From an uncultured delta proteobacterium (GTDB lineage Bacteria; Desulfobacterota; RBG-13-43-22): 64,000 nt of DNA. Below, one piece after another: positions 8,029 to 61,976 of this stretch; positions within the stretch are counted from its first letter, which is position 1; the number at the start of each line of letters is the position of its first letter. Location: positions 64,001 to 128,000 of the forward strand of contig CAWJJC010000021.1 of assembly GCA_963843145.1 (NCBI GenBank), written 5' to 3'. A program made the translations under genes and the position numbers. A model generated the notes under the pieces. It was not told where the DNA came from. It saw nothing but the letters and a program-made list of their open reading frames with translations, and did not search any database.

Positions 8029-11000
8029 GAGTTGCCTCGCTTTCCGTCTTCCGGCTATCTTTTTTTCGACGATGGGCGATTTTTTCCACCACATAAAAGG
8101 TTACCGGTATCAGAAAAATGGCGATCACCGAGGCGGCTGTGGTACCGCCCATAACCGCTGTGCCCATAATCCGTCTGGCCACGGCCCCGGCGCCCTTGGA
8201 AAAGACCAGAGGCAGCACCCCCAGGAGGAAGGCCAAGGAAGTCATCAAGATGGGTCGGAGACGGAGACGGGCCCCTTCCAGGGCGGAATCTTCCAGGGGA
8301 TGTCCCTTTTCATAGCGCGTCTTGGCGAATTCAACGATTAGAATGGCATTTTTGGCCCCCAGACCGATGAGGACGATAAGGCCGATCTGGGCGTAGACAT
8401 TGTTGGCCTGTCCCAGAATCCAGATTCCGGCAAAGGCCCCAAAAACAGCCACCGGGGTGCAAAGCAGCACACTGAAGGGCAAAGACCAGCTCTCATAGAG
8501 GGCGGCCAGGATCAGAAAAACACAAAGGAGCGAAAAACCGAATATGGCCGAGGCCGGGATCCCTTCCTGGGCCTTTTTTTCCTGAAAGCTCATGCCGATA
8601 TAGTCGAATCCCATCTCAGCCGGCATGGCTTGATGGAAGACTTCTTCGAGGGCCTTCATGACCTGTCCGGAGCTGTAACCGGGTTTGCCCATGGCATTAA
8701 TCTGAGCCGAACGGTAGAGATTATAGCGCATGGTAAACTCCGGACCCGAGCGAGACTCCATGGTCGTCAAGGCGGAAAGGGGCACAAAGTCCCCTTTGTT
8801 ATTATGAACATAAAATTGCCGGATATCATCCGCCTTGGTTCGATATTCCCCTTCGGCCTGGACAAAGACCTGCCATTGCCGGCTAAAGCGATTAAAGTAG
8901 TTGATGAAATAACCGCCCATGAAGGTCTGGAGAGTCTGATAGACCTCTCCCAGGTCAATCCCCTGTTTAAGAATCTGGTCGCGATCCACTTTCACGAAGC
9001 GCTGGGGAACGGCCGGTAGAAAGGTGGTGGTTACCCTTGCCAGTTCCGGTCTTTTGCGGGCCTCCTCAATGAACTTGTTGACGTTTTCAGCCAGGAAGGA
9101 AATGGGCTTGCCGGCCCTGTCTTGGAGAACCATCGTGGCCCCACCGGCCAGTCCGATACCTTGTATGGCCGGTGGGGGAAAGGCAAAGGCCACGGCCTGG
9201 GGCAATTTGGCCAGTTCGGTATTCAGGTGATCCATGATGGCCTGGTATTGCTCTTCCGGTCTTTTGCGGTCTTTCCACTCCTTCAGCGTGACAAAGAAGA
9301 AGCCGCTGTAGGTATTTTGAGCGATACTCATCAGGCTGATACCGATGATGGCCTGGTTGTGTTCCACTCCCGGCGTATTTTTAAGAAGGGTTTCAATTTT
9401 TCGGCAGGTATCGTCCGTCCTTTGAAGAGAGGCAGCCTGGGGTAGGGTCAGGTTGACGAACATGTACCCCAGATCTTCTTCCGGCAGGAATCCGGAAGGG
9501 ATTTTAGAGCCCAAGAGCCCGCCGAGAAGGGCTATTCCGGCCAGCAGGATTAGACTCAAGGCACTTTTGCGAAGGAGAGACCCGCAGATACGGATATAGC
9601 CTCTCGAAGCCTTACCGAAAGAGCGGTTGAACCATCCAAAAAAGATCCCCAGGGGGCCCCGTGTCTGTTTCCCCGGTCTGAGCAAGAGGGCGCAGAGGGC
9701 CGGGCTGAGGGTCAGGGCATTGAAGGCCGAGATCAGGACCGAAATGGCTATGGTTATGGCGAACTGCTGGTAGAGGCGGCCGGTGATCCCCGGGATGAAA
9801 ATGGTGGGGACAAAGACCGCCGAGAGGATCAGGGCAATCGCGATAACCGGTCCCGAGACCTCCTCCATAGCTTTAAAGGCCGCCGCTTTGGGCGCCAACC
9901 CTTCTTCAATGTGCCGCTCCACCGCCTCTACCACAATGATGGCGTCATCGACCACCAGACCGATGGCCAGGACCAGACCAAAAAGGGAGAGGGTGTTGAT
10001 CGAGAATCCCAATAAGGGAAAGACGGCAAAGGTCCCGATGAGAGAGACCGGAACCGCCAGGGCCGGGATCAGGGTGGCTCGCCAGCCCTGAAGAAAAATG
10101 TAGACGACCAGGATGACCAGGAGCAGGGCCTCTAAAAGAGTAATAACGATTTCCTTGATCCCTTCGTTGATGGACTTGGTGGTGTCCAAGGAAATGGTAT
10201 AATCCAGGTCCGGCGGAAATCGTTTCTTAGCCTCTTCCATCAATTTTTTTATAGTGGCTACGGTGGCTAAGGCATTGGAACCGGGCAACTGATAGATGGC
10301 CATGATTCCGGCCGGTTGGCCGTCGATACGGCCCTTGATGCTATAGCTTTGACTGCCTAATTCGATGCGGGCCACGTCCTTCAGCCGGACAATGGATCCA
10401 TCGGGATTGGCCCGGAGCACGATGTTTCCAAAATCTTCCTCGGAAACTAATCGGCCCTGGGCCGTAACGGTATAGGTATATTCCTGGCCGGGCGGTACAG
10501 GCTCGTTGCCGATTTGTCCGGCCGGGTTGACGGTATTCTGCTCTCGGACGGCGTTGACAATATTGGAAACCGTAAGGCCCAGCTTCCCGAGAGCGTCGGG
10601 TTTGACCCAGATCCGGATGGCATAGGGGCCGGCCCCGAAAATGGCCACCTGACCAATGCCGGGAACGCGCAGGAGCTGGTCGTTGAGATTGATATTGGCA
10701 TAGTTGGCCAGGAAGGTGGCGTCATAGGTCCCCCGGGGAGAAACCAGGCCGATGAGCATCATGAGGTGCGGCGCGGGATTTCACCATGGTTACCCCGTAA
10801 TTGCGCACATCCGCCGGTAACTGCGCCTCGGCCTGGTTTTCCCGCATCTGGGTAAAGATCAGGTCCGTATTGGGGTCGGTCTTGACATCGAAGTTGACAA
10901 ACATGCGCGAGGTGCCGTTACTGGCATTGATGGAATACATATACCCCATGTTATCCACGCCACTGACCTGTTGCTCGATGGGCGTGGCCACCGATTGCTC

Positions 11001-22369: not shown

Positions 22370-23887
22370 TCAATTTAACTGGAAAGTCACATAGGACAGG
22401 CCCGCCGCCCGTTCTACTTGGAGAACCACGTAGCTGCCGGGTTTCAGGTGATGCAAGGCCGAATAAAGCGACTCGAGGCTGTTGATGGCCGCTCCATTCA
22501 GGGCGTGAATGATGTCCCCGGTGGTCAGGGAGTTCTTGGTCAACCCGGATGTGGCCGTTTTGGCTACCACGACGACTCCGGAGCCCTGACGAATCCCCGG
22601 AAGGAGCGAAAGGACCTTTTCGTCGACGTTGAGGCCCACAATCCCCAATTTTCGCACCAGGTTCTTTTCAGGGTCCGCCAAATCAAACAGACGATCTACG
22701 TTTTCATGGTGCTCAATGACCTCCACGTCGAAGGACAACTTCTTCGTTCCGCGCAGGACCTCCATTTTGACGTTCTCCCCGGGGTTGACTAGAAAGAAGC
22801 TGATTCCCAAAAGGGGGAGATTGTCGACCGGTCTCCCCTTGACCGTCAGGATGATGTCCTGAATCTTGAGGCCCGCCTTATCGGCGGGAGATCCAGGGGC
22901 CACATCGCTGATAAGGACCCCCCAGTCTCTGGGAAGGCCCAGGCCGGCGGCCATCCCCGGCGAGATGGACTGAACGTGGATGCCGATTACTCCCCGGTGG
23001 AGGTGCCCATATTGACGGAGTTGGGGATAGGCGAAGCGGACGATGGCGCTGGGAATGGCGAATCCCAAGGCCTCATTTCCTCCGGACTGGGTAAGGATGA
23101 AAGTGTTGATCCCCACCAGTTCTCCCTGCACGTTTACCAGCGGACCGCCGCTATTGCCGGGATTGATGGCGGCGTCTGTCTGAATGAAAACCAGTGGACT
23201 ATCAGGTTCGAGCTGACGGGCGACCGCACTCACCACGCCCATGGAAACGGAATTCCGCAGTCCGCTGGGACTGCCGAAGGTGAAAACGATCTCTCCCTGC
23301 CGCAGTCCCTCGTACTTTCCAATGGGCAAGGCCGGCAGTCCCCGGGCCTCCACCTTCAGCAACGCCAGGTCCAATTCGTTTGAGACGCCCACCACGCGGG
23401 CCTCCAGGGTGCGACCTAGGGAGGTAGAACTTGAAAAGGCGGAAGCCCCCTCATCCCCTAAAGAGGACAAAACCACTTGGACCCGGCTCTCGCCGCTGAC
23501 GACATGCGCATTGGTGACGATAAAGCCATCGGGATCGATGATGGCTCCAGATCCAATGCCTCGTTGTTTTCCAAAGACCAAACTCCCTTCTCGATGACTT
23601 TCATCATCCAAAGGCTTGAATCCTGTGACCAGTACCTGCACCACACTCGGGGAAACCTTTCCTACCAGGTCTTCCACGGAAGCATTGAATTGAATAAGGG
23701 CTTCGGAAGCCTGGGCCTTCTGGGCCGAATGTGCCTGCAACTCTCCGGCCAGCAAGGCGTACCCGACGCTGACGATTACGAGTCCTAGTCGCATCCTGCT
23801 CAGTCGAAACAACCGTCCTTGAAATCGGATCCATCCGAAATTCCTCACGTTCAAGTCCGAATTCCCCACTTTATTCTCAGCGATCAT
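22370..23887 (-). CDS. HtrA/DegP-family serine protease with two PDZ domains
   Basis: TNAHVV, DLALLK, IQTDAAINPGNSGGPL catalytic motifs; start may be downstream at MRLGLV. Confidence 0.93.
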   Translation of the reverse strand: MIAENKVGNSDLNVRNFGWIRFQGRLFRLSRMRLGLVIVSVGYALLAGELQAHSAQKAQASEALIQFNASVEDLVGKVSPSVVQVLVTGFKPLDDESHREGSLVFGKQRGIGSGAIIDPDGFIVTNAHVVSGESRVQVVLSSLGDEGASAFSSSTSLGRTLEARVVGVSNELDLALLKVEARGLPALPIGKYEGLRQGEIVFTFGSPSGLRNSVSMGVVSAVARQLEPDSPLVFIQTDAAINPGNSGGPLVNVQGELVGINTFILTQSGGNEALGFAIPSAIVRFAYPQLRQYGHLHRGVIGIHVQSISPGMAAGLGLPRDWGVLISDVAPGSPADKAGLKIQDIILTVKGRPVDNLPLLGISFFLVNPGENVKMEVLRGTKKLSFDVEVIEHHENVDRLFDLADPEKNLVRKLGIVGLNVDEKVLSLLPGIRQGSGVVVVAKTATSGLTKNSLTTGDIIHALNGAAINSLESLYSALHHLKPGSYVVLQVERAAGLSYVTFQLN

Positions 23888-23967: not shown

Positions 23968-24297
23968 CTAAAAGATGGAATAGGTAATGATGCCGCAGAC
24001 CGCCACCATCAAAATCAAACCCAGGATGAAGGCCCCATCGGCAATTTGTTCCAGGCGAGGCATTCGATGAAGACTGCGCATTCGCAAGGCCCAATAAGCA
24101 CAAAGACAGGAGCAGAGAAAGAAAAGGGCGTCGAGAGAAAGAAGGTCGTCGGCCAAGGTATCGATCTTTAGGGTGGAAATAACCACGCGAATAAGTCCGA
24201 TGACCGTTAGACAGACGCCGACCATGGCGGCGGATACCGAAAAAAGGTGGATGGAAATGTCCTCTTCGAGAGGTTTAGGCATTCTTAGCTGAGGCAT
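23968..24297 (-). CDS. small hypothetical membrane protein (3 TM)
   Basis: IHLFSVSAAMVGVCLTVIGL...TLADDLL; RBS GGAG upstream. Confidence 0.75.
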   Translation of the reverse strand: MPQLRMPKPLEEDISIHLFSVSAAMVGVCLTVIGLIRVVISTLKIDTLADDLLSLDALFFLCSCLCAYWALRMRSLHRMPRLEQIADGAFILGLILMVAVCGIITYSIF

Positions 24298-24387: not shown

Positions 24388-24837
24388 TTAGGGATGATCT
24401 TCTCTCTTCTTGAACGATTTTCCATCAAATTCCGGATAGAGTATCTTTAGGCAGTCAGGGCAGATCGAATGGCTAAACTTCGCCAGAGAATTTGCACTGA
24501 TATAGTCTTCCAATGTTTTCCAATCAATGTCTTGTCTAATCTTTTTGCAATTGGCGCAGATGGGGATAAACCCTTCAAGAATTCTAATTTCCTTCTCTAA
24601 TCTCTTTCGAAAGTAACAGAACGATGAGAAGATGACCAAGAAATATATTACTAGTTCAAAGATCACCTCCCCTTTTCGCTGAGAGAATTTGGTGGGTTCG
24701 TCGCCGAACAGGTAATGAGGTAAGTCCAGAAGCTCATTGGCTATGGTCAAAAAAACAAATATGGTCAGCATAACTAGAAAAACAACCCAGATTTTCTTGT
24801 GAGCCCGTAAAGGCAATGGATTATGACTTTTTGACAT
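24388..24837 (-). CDS. 2-TM protein with C-terminal PICxxCKKIR...SHSICPDC Cys-rich domain
   Basis: motifs read directly; RBS GGAGGG in the 21-nt gap after the Enzyme I gene. Confidence 0.8.
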   Translation of the reverse strand: MSKSHNPLPLRAHKKIWVVFLVMLTIFVFLTIANELLDLPHYLFGDEPTKFSQRKGEVIFELVIYFLVIFSSFCYFRKRLEKEIRILEGFIPICANCKKIRQDIDWKTLEDYISANSLAKFSHSICPDCLKILYPEFDGKSFKKREDHP

Positions 24838-24858
24838 GGATCTGCCCTCCCTCTGGGT

Positions 24859-26961
24859 TTAATCAAATGCGGAGGCGACGATCTGCTGAAGGTCCTTCGG
24901 AGTGGTGGCACCGAGGGCCTCCTGGGCCAGGGCTCGCGCCTGATCAATCGTCACCTGTCGGATAGCGTGACGTACCCGCGCCGCCAGAAATGGATTCAGA
25001 CTGAGGTCCGTCACGCCCAGGCCCACCAACAGGCAGGCGACCACGGGATCACTGGCCGCTTCTCCGCAGACGGTTACGGCCATCCCCCGGTTCACGGCAG
25101 CACGGACTATCCGCTCCGTGGCCCGCAGCACGGAGGGATGGAGAAATGAAAGCACCCCCGAAGGTCCCTGCGATCCACGGTTCATGGTCAAGATGGAGTG
25201 GGCCAGATCGTTGGTCCCGATGGAGACAAAATCCGCGATTTGCAGAATTCCCTGGATATCAAAGGCCGCGGCCGGAGTCTCGATCATGGCTCCGATAGGC
25301 GGTCGTTTGCTCAGTTGCTCGCTTTGCACTACTTCGTCCACCAAGCGGCAAGCCTCGCTCAAATCCGCCACGCCTATGACCATCGGGAACAAGATTTTCA
25401 CGTCACCCCTTGGTGCGGCTCGGAGGATCGCCAGGATCTGGGTGCGGAACATGGTTTTCTCGGCCAGGGAATAGGCCAGACCGCGCAGGCCGGCGCGCAA
25501 AGCCAGATCGGTGGCGATGCCGTCAAAGCGCGGCATCTTGTCCCCCCCGAGATCCATCGTGCGGATGACGACCGGCCGCGGAGCAAGCAGACCGGCTACC
25601 TCGGAATAGGCCGCTGTTTGCGTTTCCAGGTCCGGCGGTCGTTCCGCCTCCAGAAACAGGAATTCCGAGCGAAACAGGCCTACGCCATCCAGTCGATGCT
25701 CCAGGACTAGGCAAGCTTCATCCGGACGGCCGATATTCGCCTGTAACCCGATCGCGACACCATCCTTGGTGATACAGGGCTGGACCGGCTCCTGGGCGGT
25801 GGCCGCCCTGAACAGGGCGGATTGTGTCTGACGCGCCGCAAAGCGCGCCTTCTGGGCCGGGGTCGGGGCTACCGTAACGGTTCCCGCTTCGGCATCCACC
25901 AGCAGCCGGTCCCCGGAGGCCAGCAGCGACGTGGCGTCCTTGATGTCGCAGACTGCGGGAATATGTCTGAATCGGGTCAGGATCGCGACATGCGACGCGG
26001 GGCCCGTTCTCTCGGTGACGATGGCGGCCACAAGGGCCGGATCGATCTGGAGCGCATCGGACAAAAGGAGTTCTTCAGAGACCAAAATGGTTCCCGGCGA
26101 AAGGGCGGACAGGCGGTTCGAGGCCGAATTATTCGAGGTTCTGAGGTGGCGTAGAACTTGATGCCCCAAGTCGCGCACGTCAGCGCTGCGCTCCCGCATG
26201 AATTCCTGTTTCAACCCCTGGAGCCGCCGCTCCATCTCTCGGATCTCGGCCAGGACGGCCTGTTCGCTTCTGACCAGATCCTGAGACACGCGTCGTTTGC
26301 ATTTCTTCGTAAAGGAGGGGTCTTTGAGCATGGCCAGACGCATCTCCACCAGAGCGATCTCATCGTCTGCCTTTTGGCGTTCAAACTGCTTCCGAATGGT
26401 ATCCAACTCGTGGATTGACGCCGCCAAAGCGCAGTCAAAGCGGTCACCCTCCGACTTCACCTCATCCAGAGCAATGTTTGGCTCCCCGAGTGCGGATTCA
26501 GGCTCCGGCAGGTAGACCACGGCCACTCCGTCGGCTAAGCCAGGGGAAACCCCGCGGCCTTGCATGGTCGTGCCTACCAGTCGGGAAAAGGCGCGAAGAT
26601 GCTGCATCTCTTCGTCCTTCGTCGTCAGGTCCTTTTTAATCTGTCTGGTCTCAATGGCTTTTCGGCCTACTAAGTAGGCATATAATGACAAGGCGAGCAC
26701 TTCAATCGCGGCATTGATGCTCTCTAAGGGAAGTAATTCAGGTACCCGCCAATAGACTTCAAAATAGACCCTCAGCACCGGAAGCAAGACGGATAAGATA
26801 TAAGCCAGGGTCCTTGTGCCCATCCAGGCCGCCAGGCCAATCGGCAGAACATAGAGGAGAGGAAAGCGAATATCTCGGCCCGTGACCAAGTCAACGGACA
26901 AGGTAACCAGCGTGACCAGCAGGCAAACGGCTGTGGGGTTCCTCTCGGTGAGCTGTTTCAT
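24859..26961 (-). CDS. PEP-protein phosphotransferase (PTS Enzyme I) with N-terminal multi-TM domain
   Basis: GRGVSPG, GPASHVAIL (phospho-His), GVGLFRSEF, IRTMDLGGDK, MIETPAA, SIGTNDL, VCGE; first ~100 aa are about 4 hydrophobic helices; start uncertain (26961 or 27015). Confidence 0.9.
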   Translation of the reverse strand: MKQLTERNPTAVCLLVTLVTLSVDLVTGRDIRFPLLYVLPIGLAAWMGTRTLAYILSVLLPVLRVYFEVYWRVPELLPLESINAAIEVLALSLYAYLVGRKAIETRQIKKDLTTKDEEMQHLRAFSRLVGTTMQGRGVSPGLADGVAVVYLPEPESALGEPNIALDEVKSEGDRFDCALAASIHELDTIRKQFERQKADDEIALVEMRLAMLKDPSFTKKCKRRVSQDLVRSEQAVLAEIREMERRLQGLKQEFMRERSADVRDLGHQVLRHLRTSNNSASNRLSALSPGTILVSEELLLSDALQIDPALVAAIVTERTGPASHVAILTRFRHIPAVCDIKDATSLLASGDRLLVDAEAGTVTVAPTPAQKARFAARQTQSALFRAATAQEPVQPCITKDGVAIGLQANIGRPDEACLVLEHRLDGVGLFRSEFLFLEAERPPDLETQTAAYSEVAGLLAPRPVVIRTMDLGGDKMPRFDGIATDLALRAGLRGLAYSLAEKTMFRTQILAILRAAPRGDVKILFPMVIGVADLSEACRLVDEVVQSEQLSKRPPIGAMIETPAAAFDIQGILQIADFVSIGTNDLAHSILTMNRGSQGPSGVLSFLHPSVLRATERIVRAAVNRGMAVTVCGEAASDPVVACLLVGLGVTDLSLNPFLAARVRHAIRQVTIDQARALAQEALGATTPKDLQQIVASAFD

Positions 26962-27290
26962 GGAACGCAGAGCAGTTGTCAGGTGAGCTTCCCTCCTCCT
27001 ACCATTAGACGCCAATCATAGTTAGGTTAATCCGCAGAGTAAAGAATAGTCTTCAATAAATCATTATTAAACTTAGGAGTACAGGACCATAAAAAGGTTA
27101 AATATCCGATTAAGAACCCTGGTTTCATCCGCCCTAAAAACATCCCTTTTTCAATTCCAGAATAGACTCATTATGCCAAGCGATGAAAGCAAATTTAACC
27201 TAATGAAATACTTCCTGGTCCAAGAGATCATGACTAGGTAAGATTTGAGGATGTTTTATTCGCCAAGTCAACCTGAAGAGGAGGACCCGT

Positions 27291-27800
27291 ATGAAAAAGA
27301 TCATTGTTTTGTTGATTATCTGTTCGATGCTTGTTTTATTTGTTCCCGCCAAACAAGTGGAGGCTCACGGCGGGTTAGGGTGGTTACTTCCCGGATTGAT
27401 TATCGGTGGGGCCATCGGCTTGAGCCTAACCCCTCGATACTACTACCCCCCGCGTTACTATTATCCGCCTCCGGCCTATTATTATCCCCCGCCCGCCTAT
27501 GACTACCCGCCTCCGGCCTATAGTTCACCTCCGCCCCCACCCGATACCTCTTCGAGGGAAAGTGATCAGGCGTCGAAGTCAGGGGGTCGGATCTTCATCT
27601 ACCCCCGCCAGGGTCAGACCCAGGAAAAACTGGAACTGGATCGCAACGATTGCCATAACTGGGTTTTGGGCCAAACAGGATACGACCCGACCAAGCCGCC
27701 GCCCAGCGATATGTCTCTTGCTCAGATAGAACAAGAAAGTGCGGATTACCAGCGGGCCTTGGGAGCCTGCCTGGATGCCCGGGGGTACACGGTGAGATAA
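27291..27800 (+). CDS. exported Pro/Tyr-rich protein
   Basis: signal peptide; YYYPPP repeats; IYPRQGQTQEK..DRNDCHNW...ACLDARGYTV C-terminal domain; RBS GAGGAGG. Confidence 0.8.
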   Translation: MKKIIVLLIICSMLVLFVPAKQVEAHGGLGWLLPGLIIGGAIGLSLTPRYYYPPRYYYPPPAYYYPPPAYDYPPPAYSSPPPPPDTSSRESDQASKSGGRIFIYPRQGQTQEKLELDRNDCHNWVLGQTGYDPTKPPPSDMSLAQIEQESADYQRALGACLDARGYTVR

Positions 27801-27878: not shown

Positions 27879-28319
27879 ATGAAAACCAGGACTAAAATAG
27901 TATCGATGCTTGTTTTGATGGTTTTTTGCTTCAGCGCTTATGAGGCCTACGCCTTCGGAGGGCCCGGCAGGCGAGGATCTGAGATGAAGCACCTCAAATG
28001 GGTACTGGCCAAGGCCGGGGTTCCATTGACCGACGACCAGAAAACCCAGATCAAAGGGATTTTTCAGGGAAACCGGGACCAGATAAAGACGGAGCGGACC
28101 GCTTTATTCCAAGCCCGCCGGGCTCTTCAAGCAGCTATTTTATCTGGCAAACTCAATGATCAACAGATCAATGACCAGGTAGCCAAAATGATGCCCCAGA
28201 TCAGTGCCTTGGCGGTGAACCGGGCCGGCCTTTATAATCAAATCGTTTGGGATGTGTTGACGCAGGACCAACAGGCGGCGCTACAAGCCCGTGCCACTTC
28301 CGAACAGGTCCAGCAATAA
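27879..28319 (+). CDS. Spy/CpxP-family periplasmic chaperone-like protein
   Basis: signal peptide; two LTxxQ motifs (LTDDQ, LTQDQ); RBS AAGGAG. Confidence 0.8.
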   Translation: MKTRTKIVSMLVLMVFCFSAYEAYAFGGPGRRGSEMKHLKWVLAKAGVPLTDDQKTQIKGIFQGNRDQIKTERTALFQARRALQAAILSGKLNDQQINDQVAKMMPQISALAVNRAGLYNQIVWDVLTQDQQAALQARATSEQVQQ

Positions 28320-61097: not shown

Positions 61098-61976
61098 CTA
61101 ATTTGCTTCATCTGGATAATGTTTTTCTAAGCACTTATCACAAATTCCGTGGCTGAATCGGGCTTCTGAATGATCAGAAATGTATTTTTCAAGTTGGCTC
61201 CAATCCCCTTTGTCGTCGCGAATTTCTTTACAATACATGCATATAGGTAGAATACCTTGTAATGTTTTAATCTCGTCAATTGCTTTTTGAAGGGCATCAT
61301 TTTTCTCCTGAAGCAATTTTTCCGAGTTTAAGACCAGCTTGGTAGCAATAAAGGCAATAATTAAAGATATCAAAACACCTGAAATCGATAAAATAAGAGC
61401 GATCTTTTCAAGATTTGATTGCTTTGTTGCAGCAAGTTCGATGAAGTTATCAGCCTTGTTTCTTGCATATGAGGTTAATTCCAGCATTTTAGCCTCAAGT
61501 TTTGCTGCATGTTCAGCCCCATTTGTTTTGGTTATAAGAATAGCTTCTTGTTTATTGCCTGAATTAAGAAGTCTGACCACGTTTTCTCGGATGGGTCTCC
61601 AATTTTCAAAAAGTTGTCTGCTTTGTTTCTCAAGTGTCTTTCCTTCCTCACCGAGAATATCCTTTTGGATGGTATCAAGCTGCTGGTACACATTTTGTTC
61701 GTTTTCAGCTACGGCATTTAACGTATGCTTTATCTCGTCAGGAGAATTCGCCAAGACAACATCTTCCATGCTGCGATGTATTTTTGTTATGTTAAGAGCC
61801 GCAAGAAGGGAGGCATTTGAGACTACAAGTGGATGTTCATAAATCTTTACTGTGAGATCACCTAATGTGCGTAACCCTATTATTAAAACGATTCCAAAAG
61901 AGACAAATAAAAAGATGATGAGCAAAAAGCTTAGGGGTAATCTTTGTTTTTTAATTATATTTAAAAGAGAGCTCAT
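61098..61976 (-). CDS. membrane protein with four-helix-bundle sensor and C-terminal PICxxCKxIR..SHGICDKC domain
   Basis: 2 TM; IYEHPLVVSNA periplasmic helix; Cys-rich tail; AT-rich. Confidence 0.85.
   Translation of the reverse strand: MSSLLNIIKKQRLPLSFLLIIFLFVSFGIVLIIGLRTLGDLTVKIYEHPLVVSNASLLAALNITKIHRSMEDVVLANSPDEIKHTLNAVAENEQNVYQQLDTIQKDILGEEGKTLEKQSRQLFENWRPIRENVVRLLNSGNKQEAILITKTNGAEHAAKLEAKMLELTSYARNKADNFIELAATKQSNLEKIALILSISGVLISLIIAFIATKLVLNSEKLLQEKNDALQKAIDEIKTLQGILPICMYCKEIRDDKGDWSQLEKYISDHSEARFSHGICDKCLEKHYPDEAN

Follow-up and report, generated by a model that had tools for sequence, protein, structure and literature searches.

Enzyme I (EI), which takes the first step of the phosphoenolpyruvate (PEP)-dependent phosphotransferase system (PTS), is treated as a soluble cytoplasmic enzyme. 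In its paralogue EI-Ntr (PtsP), an N-terminal sensory domain, named as a GAF domain, modulates autophosphorylation, hence a regulatory PTS without a transport role, and the GAF-bearing EI-Ntr, the one sensory variant that these papers name, reads glutamine and 2-oxoglutarate (available text of PMC2405797 and PMC13104625). The DNA analysed here (the window) is a stretch of 64,000 nt from an uncultured delta proteobacterium of the Desulfobacterota (assembly GCA_963843145.1, contig CAWJJC010000021.1, positions 64,001 to 128,000). Its minus strand encodes an EI in which a block of four transmembrane (TM) helices leads, through a connector helix, into a complete enzyme. This protein, referred to here as the sensor-EI, and its relatives constitute a conserved, separate EI lineage that takes signalling domains as input and is apparently undescribed.

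The sensor-EI gene is a single uninterrupted open reading frame (ORF) joining the TM helices to the EI part (Table 1), as stated in a preliminary description made from the sequence alone. The four or so hydrophobic helices mentioned there were located as four TM segments, preceded by an N-terminus rich in K/R and separated by loops of 3–11 residues. An AlphaFold2 model of the whole protein (21-row alignment, mean pLDDT 68) placed helices at residues 27–45, 52–64, 68–89 and 92–153, TM4 being continuous with the connector as a single helix to residue 153 and running directly into the start of EI. Modelled alone from a 70-row alignment, the block showed the same four helices with a pLDDT of 88.2 and a pTM of 0.74. 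An N-in/C-in topology may reasonably be assumed, since the number of helices is even, the N-terminus is positive, and the enzyme needs cytoplasmic PEP and HPr; D42, R82 and N101 would then lie in the outer half of the bundle. Residue numbers refer to the 718-aa form that starts at TTG 27015, although the true start is probably either CTG 26982 (707 aa), a codon that is ATG in the relative L030, or ATG 26961 (700 aa), a form equal to the database protein P0003. TTG 27015 is overlapped by the -10-like hexamer of a sigma-70-like match; such matches numbered five in the region, with 2.9 expected. Each of the three candidate starts is 5′ of TM1, so the uncertainty is immaterial to the architecture; further in-frame Met codons fall within TM2 and in the connector.

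All three EI domains were recognised by Pfam above their cut-offs (PEP-utilisers_N, residues 152–276; the mobile domain, 306–378; PEP-utilizers_C, 405–688), and no GAF family was among the Pfam matches, the N-terminus consisting of the four TM helices. The NCBIfam model TIGR01417 (PTS_I_fam) scored 383.3 bits against a cut-off of 341.7, with residues 152–713 covering model positions 2–564 of 565, and residues 4–565 of E. coli EI (2hwg) aligned end to end with residues 153–713 (E 6e-75). The phospho-His, PEP-binding and active-site Cys motifs named in the preliminary description were each invariant in 21 of 21 aligned homologues: H342 (GPASHVAI), R449/E451 (FRSEF), R485–D488 (RTMD), E579 (MIE), N602–D603 (TND) and C650 (CGE). 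By these residues the sensor-EI is predicted to be catalytically complete. Databases annotate proteins of this type merely as EI. Since the window protein misses both equivalog cut-offs, that of PtsI (308 against 824) and that of PtsP (NF008283; 293.8 bits against 583), it represents a third kind of EI, neither PtsP nor close to PtsI.

The joining of the TM block to EI is genuine and recurs in many independent assemblies. A search with residues 1–150 alone retrieved 37 proteins at E ≤ 1e-3 from 1238 candidates (42–100% identity, 548–755 aa), and all 37 contained the three EI Pfam domains. A search with the EI part (residues 152–718) gave 7,500 relatives at E ≤ 1e-30, the best 120 of which were 53–100% identical; among these 120, the profile of the 4-TM block matched 99 at E ≤ 1e-20, nine (676–703 aa) had a different, 2-TM N-terminus, six (751–1015 aa) had PAS or REC-PAS N-termini, and six were N-terminally cut fragments. 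The source names of sensor-EIs include Deltaproteobacteria, Syntrophales, Brocadiia, Sedimentisphaerales, Candidatus Accumulibacter, Luteolibacter, Verrucomicrobiales and Calditrichota metagenome-assembled genomes (MAGs). Within its own phylum (401 genomes) the sensor-EI is rare: strong matches were confined to the genome of the window, two others from its genus and one of the 11 genomes from the sister genus.

A tree was built with FastTree (LG+gamma, 596 columns) from 118 sensor-EIs of at least 630 aa, shorter fragments being excluded, with five canonical EIs from sensor-EI genomes and six rows of GAF-type EIs from the same phylum as outgroups. All 118 sensor-EIs fell into one clade (SH-like support 0.92), in which the six PAS/REC-PAS forms were sister to the 112 TM forms (0.92), and the nine 2-TM forms made up one group (0.99) nested among the 4-TM forms. 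The GAF-type EIs clustered with the canonical EIs, apart from this clade. With the canonical EI encoded in the same genome the EI part of the window protein shared 29.9% identity, and with five of the six GAF-type rows 27–32% (21% with the sixth, L056); sensor-EIs as a group were 27–32% identical to canonical EIs.

The proteins with receiver plus PAS, or PAS alone, on the sensor-EI connector are P0344, P0353, P0356, P0358 and P0365 (982–1015 aa) and P0346 (751 aa). A receiver-PAS input would place EI under two-component control.

The connector is common to all of these forms: the helix EMQ..LRAF.R..GTTL.GR is equally conserved in 4-TM, 2-TM, PAS and REC-PAS sensor-EIs, and the window protein shows the clade pattern ..EMQ..LRAF..G..L.GRG. 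Because it is kept whether the input is 2-TM, PAS or REC-PAS, the EMQ..LRAF helix belongs to the EI side. The preliminary description had noted a resemblance of EEMQHLRAF at the fusion point to KEIRILEGF in the product of the next gene; with the helix on the EI side, this is no sign of shared ancestry. In a MAFFT alignment, the LEG of the Cys4 family (introduced below) was placed two helical turns earlier.

The 4-TM block was followed further with a profile (A3) of nine N-termini from the loci, searched against 1.84 billion representative proteins. At E ≤ 1e-3 it matched 437 representatives; the stricter limits of 1e-10 and 1e-30 left 123 and 9 of them, respectively. Output classes were counted among the 150 matches listed. 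Sixty-five were proteins of ∼160–220 aa in which the block is followed by ..LEGILPICxxCKKIRD..W...YI..HSEA.FSHGxCPxC, a four-cysteine tail termed Cys4 here (best match P0168, E 2.4e-30). One more had a nucleotidyl-transferase domain ahead of the block and a Cys4 tail (66 complete tails overall), eight had a cut or frameshifted Cys4 tail, and nine a Cys-less variant (..CAWSRTIEYEG.WISFEEYL..). The others were nine EIs, six histidine kinases, two cut PAS proteins, one SpoIIE/PP2C phosphatase and 49 short pieces or unclassified proteins. The EI-type and Cys4-type sequences could be aligned (MAFFT) across all four helices and ∼18 residues past TM4. Three of 13 weak N-terminal matches in the phylum were examined; a TM-GGDEF protein (L016) and a hybrid kinase (L024) among them carry the motif D..TG.E..F..FY..P...W. 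L017, another weak N-terminal match, was dropped as probably unrelated (a PilS-type 6-TM kinase). Found in kinases, a GGDEF cyclase and a PP2C phosphatase alike, the block is a true signalling input module embedded in the membrane, in line with the sensor-like character first ascribed to it.

In P0228 (432 aa), a nucleotidyl-transferase domain (PF00483, E 1.6e-50) precedes the 4-TM block and the Cys4 tail.

Genes for HPr or EII are lacking from the window, as initially remarked: PF00381, PF00359, PF03610 and PF02378, searched across the whole genome, gave no match in C21:64001–128000, all matches to these families lying elsewhere. The canonical pair ptsH (87 aa) and ptsI (605 aa) is on contig 17, not on the contig of the sensor-EI, and a rpoN-hpf-ptsN-rapZ-EIIA(Man) cluster is on contig 28. 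PTS_EIIC (PF02378), the one EIIC family searched, was not found in this 97.9% complete genome. Of five other sensor-EI genomes, four had a canonical EI above the cut-off, which in at least two genomes came directly after HPr; the search of the fifth (94% complete) did not turn one up. An HPr gene was present in the genome of the window and in all five others examined. This gene content suggests that the sensor-EI is an additional EI in a regulatory PTS.

These observations are probably best accounted for, though we hold this with moderate confidence, by a function as a membrane-signal-gated second EI that feeds the single HPr of a transporter-less regulatory PTS. The 4-TM module would sense a cue in or at the membrane and pass it down the continuous TM4-connector helix, from TM4 to residue 153. 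PEP-dependent autophosphorylation of His342 would be altered, and hence the phosphorylation state of HPr, which would carry the change to the rpoN-linked EIIA-Ntr and EIIA-Man. Such gating would parallel the control of EI-Ntr by its GAF domain. While the canonical soluble EI would read PEP/pyruvate, the sensor-EI would add phosphoryl groups on a membrane cue or, because EI reactions are reversible, might drain them.

Several points weigh against this proposal. Periplasmic loops of such small size exclude a ligand-binding ectodomain of the classical type. A single HPr was found in the genome, leaving two EIs for one HPr and no dedicated NPr-like partner. The term 'transporter-less', drawn from one EIIC family, is provisional. 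The neighbours of the sensor-EI in L031, L032, L033 and L043 are mutually unrelated, and no neighbour shared across lineages hints at the cue. Finally, the tree was obtained by a fast method with few outgroups, of which the row L056 (21% identity) is possibly a wrong ORF. A homodimer prediction of the N-terminal block (two A3 copies) scored 0.00, which weighs neither way on dimerisation. No RNA sequencing run was listed as containing the stretch, and the DNA runs listed had shares of at most 0.18.

The gene that follows the sensor-EI offers an alternative. It begins 21 nt past the EI stop, has its own GGAGGG upstream and, as initially described, encodes TM segments (two) and a cysteine tail (IPICANCKK...ICPDC); its product of 149 aa is a 2TM-Cys4 protein, and the two genes are probably co-transcribed. 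The two proteins might form a signalling unit, the Cys4 protein regulating EI or being its target: the genes lie close together on one strand, the second with its own ribosome-binding site; the pair is retained in both same-genus loci (L029 and L030, where the 149-aa gene and a 109-aa gene follow EI); and EI and Cys4 alternate as partners of both kinds of TM block. A two-protein unit is nevertheless unlikely, given that neither gene follows EI in any of the four loci of other lineages with downstream sequence (L031, L032, L033 and L043), that the 149-aa family (at least 436 clusters) looks far wider than the pairing, and that five further Cys4 proteins are encoded elsewhere in the genome. The functional coupling to the 149-aa gene that had been proposed is thus not supported, adjacency being confined to the genus (two of two loci, against none of four), and no neighbour was found to recur outside it. 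A metagenome scan gave five loci, with usable flanks in L043 only.

The 4-TM block might instead be a mere membrane anchor for a constitutively active EI, without any sensing. Its loops of just 3–11 residues and the lack of any ligand-binding domain recognisable in Pfam or NCBIfam would fit an anchor, but we consider it quite unlikely. Histidine kinases, a PP2C phosphatase, a GGDEF cyclase and the Cys4 family all carry the block at their input position; seven polar or helix-breaking residues (D42, G46, F51, P52, P58, R82 and N101) are kept in at least 90% of the 70 aligned sequences, which have differing outputs; and sister EIs replace the block with PAS or REC-PAS, which are bona fide sensors, on the shared connector helix.

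Gating of an EI that feeds HPr, as preferred here, also presupposes that HPr is the acceptor. The EI part could serve a non-HPr acceptor, or be a PEP/pyruvate-dependent enzyme outside the PTS, as its ∼30% identity to the canonical EI of the genome, the long stem branch of its clade, the position of ptsH next to the canonical EI rather than the sensor-EI, and both missed equivalog cut-offs (PtsI, 308 against 824; PtsP, 294 against 583) would allow. This is very unlikely, however: the full-length match, which takes in the HPr-binding EIN, exceeds the PTS_I_fam cut-off (383 against 341.7), the alignment with E. coli EI runs end to end, and every sensor-EI genome examined has an HPr gene. An assembly or frameshift artefact, or translation starting after the hydrophobic part, is practically out of the question despite two split copies in related MAGs and the uncertain annotated start codon: the architecture is uninterrupted in 99 of the 120 nearest relatives, whose sequences come from numerous independent assemblies, strong purifying selection acts on the N-terminal block (42–100% identity), and every candidate start precedes TM1, which effectively removes the grounds on which the preliminary description would have abandoned the fusion (no homologue with the TM extension, an indel, or a downstream start).

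The split copies are those of contig 9 of G169 and contig 207 of G229, in which the sensor-EI gene lies in two and three frames, respectively; these are probably assembly frameshifts rather than decay.

The Cys4 module, which occupies the place usual for an output domain, gave no match in Pfam, NCBIfam or PDB. The 149-aa protein has no PDB sequence relative at E ≤ 10 and, like the nearby 109-aa and 221-aa proteins, yielded nothing in Pfam and NCBIfam. Members of its family are 119–191 aa long among the 120 listed and come from MAGs named Desulfomonilaceae, Syntrophorhabdaceae and Desulfobacterium. The C-terminal 65 residues of the 149-aa protein have five further counterparts in the genome, behind PAS-PAS, PAS, a Pfam-less domain, a 4HB_MCP sensor and a 4-TM block (L039). 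The last of these, a 204-aa protein, combines a 4-TM block of the sensor-EI kind (LDHMTRYEFGFLVFYFVPIVMAAW; hhalign 66%, E 5.8e-5) with a coiled coil and a Cys4 tail. The 2-TM block of the 149-aa protein was tried as kin of the EI N-terminus and rejected (hhalign probability 0.07%); it resembles that of the 676-aa EI subclade (hhalign 85.5%, E 5.7e-6, 45 columns), on the basis of a common loop ..NE.lDLPhylfGD.PT.., a likeness seen by profile-profile comparison only (pairwise BLASTP between the 149-aa protein and a 2-TM EI gave a non-significant E of 2.3). The 4-TM and 2-TM modules each appear, then, with an EI or a Cys4 partner, a pattern that points to module shuffling. The domain swap suggested in the preliminary description, from the TM-CxxC family to EI, survives in part: the 4-TM block is homologous to that of the 4TM-Cys4 family, represented by P0168, but the block of the neighbour itself is unlike the EI N-terminus and like that of the 2-TM EIs.

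The 292-aa membrane sensor with a 4HB_MCP_1 domain, encoded in the same window, has a cytoplasmic part made up of a coiled coil and the Cys4 module (LPICMYCKEIRDD...FSHGICDKC) only. In P0221, P0232, P0250, P0251, P0254, P0286, P0303 and others (nine of the 150 listed), most of the tail cysteines are replaced while the block is retained (..CAWSRTIEYEG.WISFEEYL.RRF...SHG.SP.EA); the Cys4 module may not always depend on four metal ligands.

A bolder proposal, which we regard as quite unlikely, is that EI and Cys4 are interchangeable outputs of the 4-TM and 2-TM modules and of PAS/REC-PAS inputs. If this were true, the EI lineage would make the PTS a phosphorelay under transmembrane, even two-component, control, the Cys4 module would work in the PTS pathway, e.g. 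by binding HPr, EI or EIIA-Ntr, and the 4TM-EI/2TM-Cys4 operon of the window would be a surviving trace of that link.

The sensor-EI shares the minus strand with the genes for the 109-aa membrane protein, HtrA and the 221-aa membrane protein, a co-orientation reported earlier. A role in envelope stress had been hinted at on this ground, and a protein with an LTXXQ match (146 aa, Table 1) also flanks the gene. HtrA, however, is reduced to two fragments (126 and 132 aa; 10129–10988) in L029, whose EI N-terminus is 96% identical, and is missing from L030, where a 21-residue trace remains (around 9972–10481); the hint comes from one genome, and the role is not upheld. Divergent from the sensor-EI are the genes for a 169-aa and a 146-aa protein, kept in both same-genus loci. 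In L031 (9260–11884, plus strand; a Calditrichota-labelled MAG), the sensor-EI is followed by genes for a membrane histidine kinase (390 aa) and an NtrC-type regulator (464 aa), a neighbourhood seen in no other locus compared.

Table 1. Features of the sensor-EI gene, its surroundings and related Cys4 genes (window positions unless another sequence is named)
Feature	Position	Strand	Remarks
Sensor-EI, whole ORF	24859..27015	-	718 aa from TTG 27015, uninterrupted
4-TM input module, residues 28-116	26668..26934	-	TM segments 28-46, 49-67, 69-87, 97-116
Cytoplasmic connector helix, residues 117-152	26560..26667	-	includes EEMQHLRAF; prolongs TM4
Complete Enzyme I, residues 153-718	24862..26559	-	EIN/HPr-binding part, phospho-His mobile domain, PEP-binding EIC domain
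His342 codon, predicted phospho-histidine (GPASHVAI)	25990..25992	-	invariant 21/21; role by homology to E. coli EI
Cys650 codon, active-site Cys of PEP-binding domain (VCGE)	25066..25068	-	invariant 21/21
Shine-Dalgarno-like AGGAGGAGGG	26991..27000	-	8 nt 5′ of CTG 26982, read from sequence
Sigma-70-like -35/-10 match TTTACT-17-TATGAT	27015..27043	-	consensus match only
149-aa 2-TM protein	24388..24837	-	C-terminal unnamed Cys4 module (IPICANCKKIRQD..W..FSHSICPDC)
109-aa three-TM protein	23968..24297	-	no assigned family
HtrA/DegP gene	22370-23887		downstream of operon
169-aa secreted/membrane protein	27291-27800	+	PPxYYYPPPAY repeats, no family
146-aa protein	27879-28319	+	sub-threshold/borderline LTXXQ/Metal_resist (CpxP/Spy-like) match
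292-aa membrane sensor	61098-61976	-	4HB_MCP_1 periplasmic domain (E 8.7e-20)
204-aa 4TM-Cys4 protein of own genome	L039 1447-2061 (G000 contig 20, ~118892-119506)	-	

An EI lineage built into the membrane or bearing PAS/REC-PAS, present in several phyla to judge by MAG names, would mean that the first PTS step can be controlled by transmembrane or two-component signals, and such control would widen the sensing range of the 'regulatory PTS' in transporter-less bacteria. EI autophosphorylation with labelled PEP could provide a simple read-out for loop-less, DUF4118-type membrane sensors, which have stimuli that are difficult to pin down, and the common input modules would tie the Cys4 output module to a known pathway, giving a first experimental handle on it. 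No paper on a membrane-bound or PAS-fused EI was found in the literature searched, most subscription journals lying outside it, so that an earlier mention is possible; nor did literature on DUF4118 and membrane input domains yield anything bearing on EI. The word 'transmembrane' is absent from the available text of an evolutionary study (PMC2405797) and of a 2026 review of PTS-Ntr (PMC13104625).

Among described membrane inputs, the one to which the block had been likened is DUF4118 (PF13493), the membrane domain of KdpD-type sensor kinases. The form is similar, a loop-poor four-helix block directly before a signalling helix with relatives that have HisKA, PP2C and GGDEF outputs, and weak matches recur in the sensor-EI and its relatives (E 0.6, 0.032, 0.0045, 0.01 and 3e-4), the phylum's TM-GGDEF protein and hybrid kinase among the proteins with such sub-threshold matches. 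All, however, lie under the gathering score of 28.4 bits, the sensor-EI itself scoring 10.3 bits (E 0.6); it was not among the matches at E ≤ 1 in a six-frame genome search with DUF4118, and hhalign gave a probability of 17% for the block and a kinase, encoded in the genome of the window, that scores above the DUF4118 cut-off. In a protein atlas search only unnamed clusters were retrieved, DUF4118 occurring in 31% of the members of the rank-13 cluster. The label 'DUF4118-like' is weakly supported by these sub-threshold matches: the block, best regarded as related or parallel to DUF4118, has a similar form and works alike without being a member.

Two loci, L009 (1480–3156, minus strand) and L046 (G000 contig 20, ∼368160–370635), concern a 558-aa fusion of a KdpD-type N-terminal domain, a Usp-like domain and an EIIA-Ntr-type domain (PF00359, E 1e-19). 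Broken pieces with a DUF4118 match (85 bits) and a stop codon lie just upstream, and the whole gives the impression of a kdpD locus that was rearranged and joined to a PtsN-like domain. EIIA-Ntr is reported to act on KdpD. A PTSNtr-KdpDE pathway is named in the record of PMC9239096. A KdpD-type potassium-sensing link for the sensor-EI, drawn from this fusion and from the weak DUF4118 likeness, is a thematic lead only.

Comparison with solved structures was less specific. Foldseek with the pLDDT-88 block model gave no match in PDB at E ≤ 0.001, and the top matches of a wide VIA search, designed helical bundles with Z up to 10.7, were set aside as generic. The sole solved membrane signalling protein that matched across block and long helix was ImcA, a membrane diguanylate cyclase of Pseudomonas aeruginosa (PDB 8WCN; VIA Z 7.2, rmsd 4.2 Å, 125 residues; Foldseek TMq 0.49, E 5.8, 11% identity). 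These scores are within the range of chance matches between helical bundles, and ImcA is a lead only.

The closest relatives by input are the 4TM-Cys4 proteins (∼160–220 aa), which have the same 4-TM module as the sensor-EI but whose output is the small LPICxxCKKIRD...FSHGxCPxC module and not EI. With canonical EI (PtsI; E. coli EI, PDB 2HWG/2KX9) the sensor-EI shares the succession of EIN, phospho-His and EIC domains and the catalytic His and Cys; it differs in having ∼150 extra N-terminal residues (four TM helices plus connector), in sharing only ∼30% identity with the canonical EI encoded in the same genome, and in being unlinked to ptsH. EI-Ntr differs in its input, a soluble GAF domain rather than a 4-TM membrane module, and in its relationships, the sensor-EI scoring below the NF008283 cut-off and the GAF-type EIs grouping with canonical EIs on the tree. 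Both, however, are paralogous EIs with an N-terminal sensory domain, and the rpoN-linked ptsN and EIIA-Man genes are also present in the genome of the window; the analogy to the GAF-bearing EI-Ntr drawn at the outset is an apt one.

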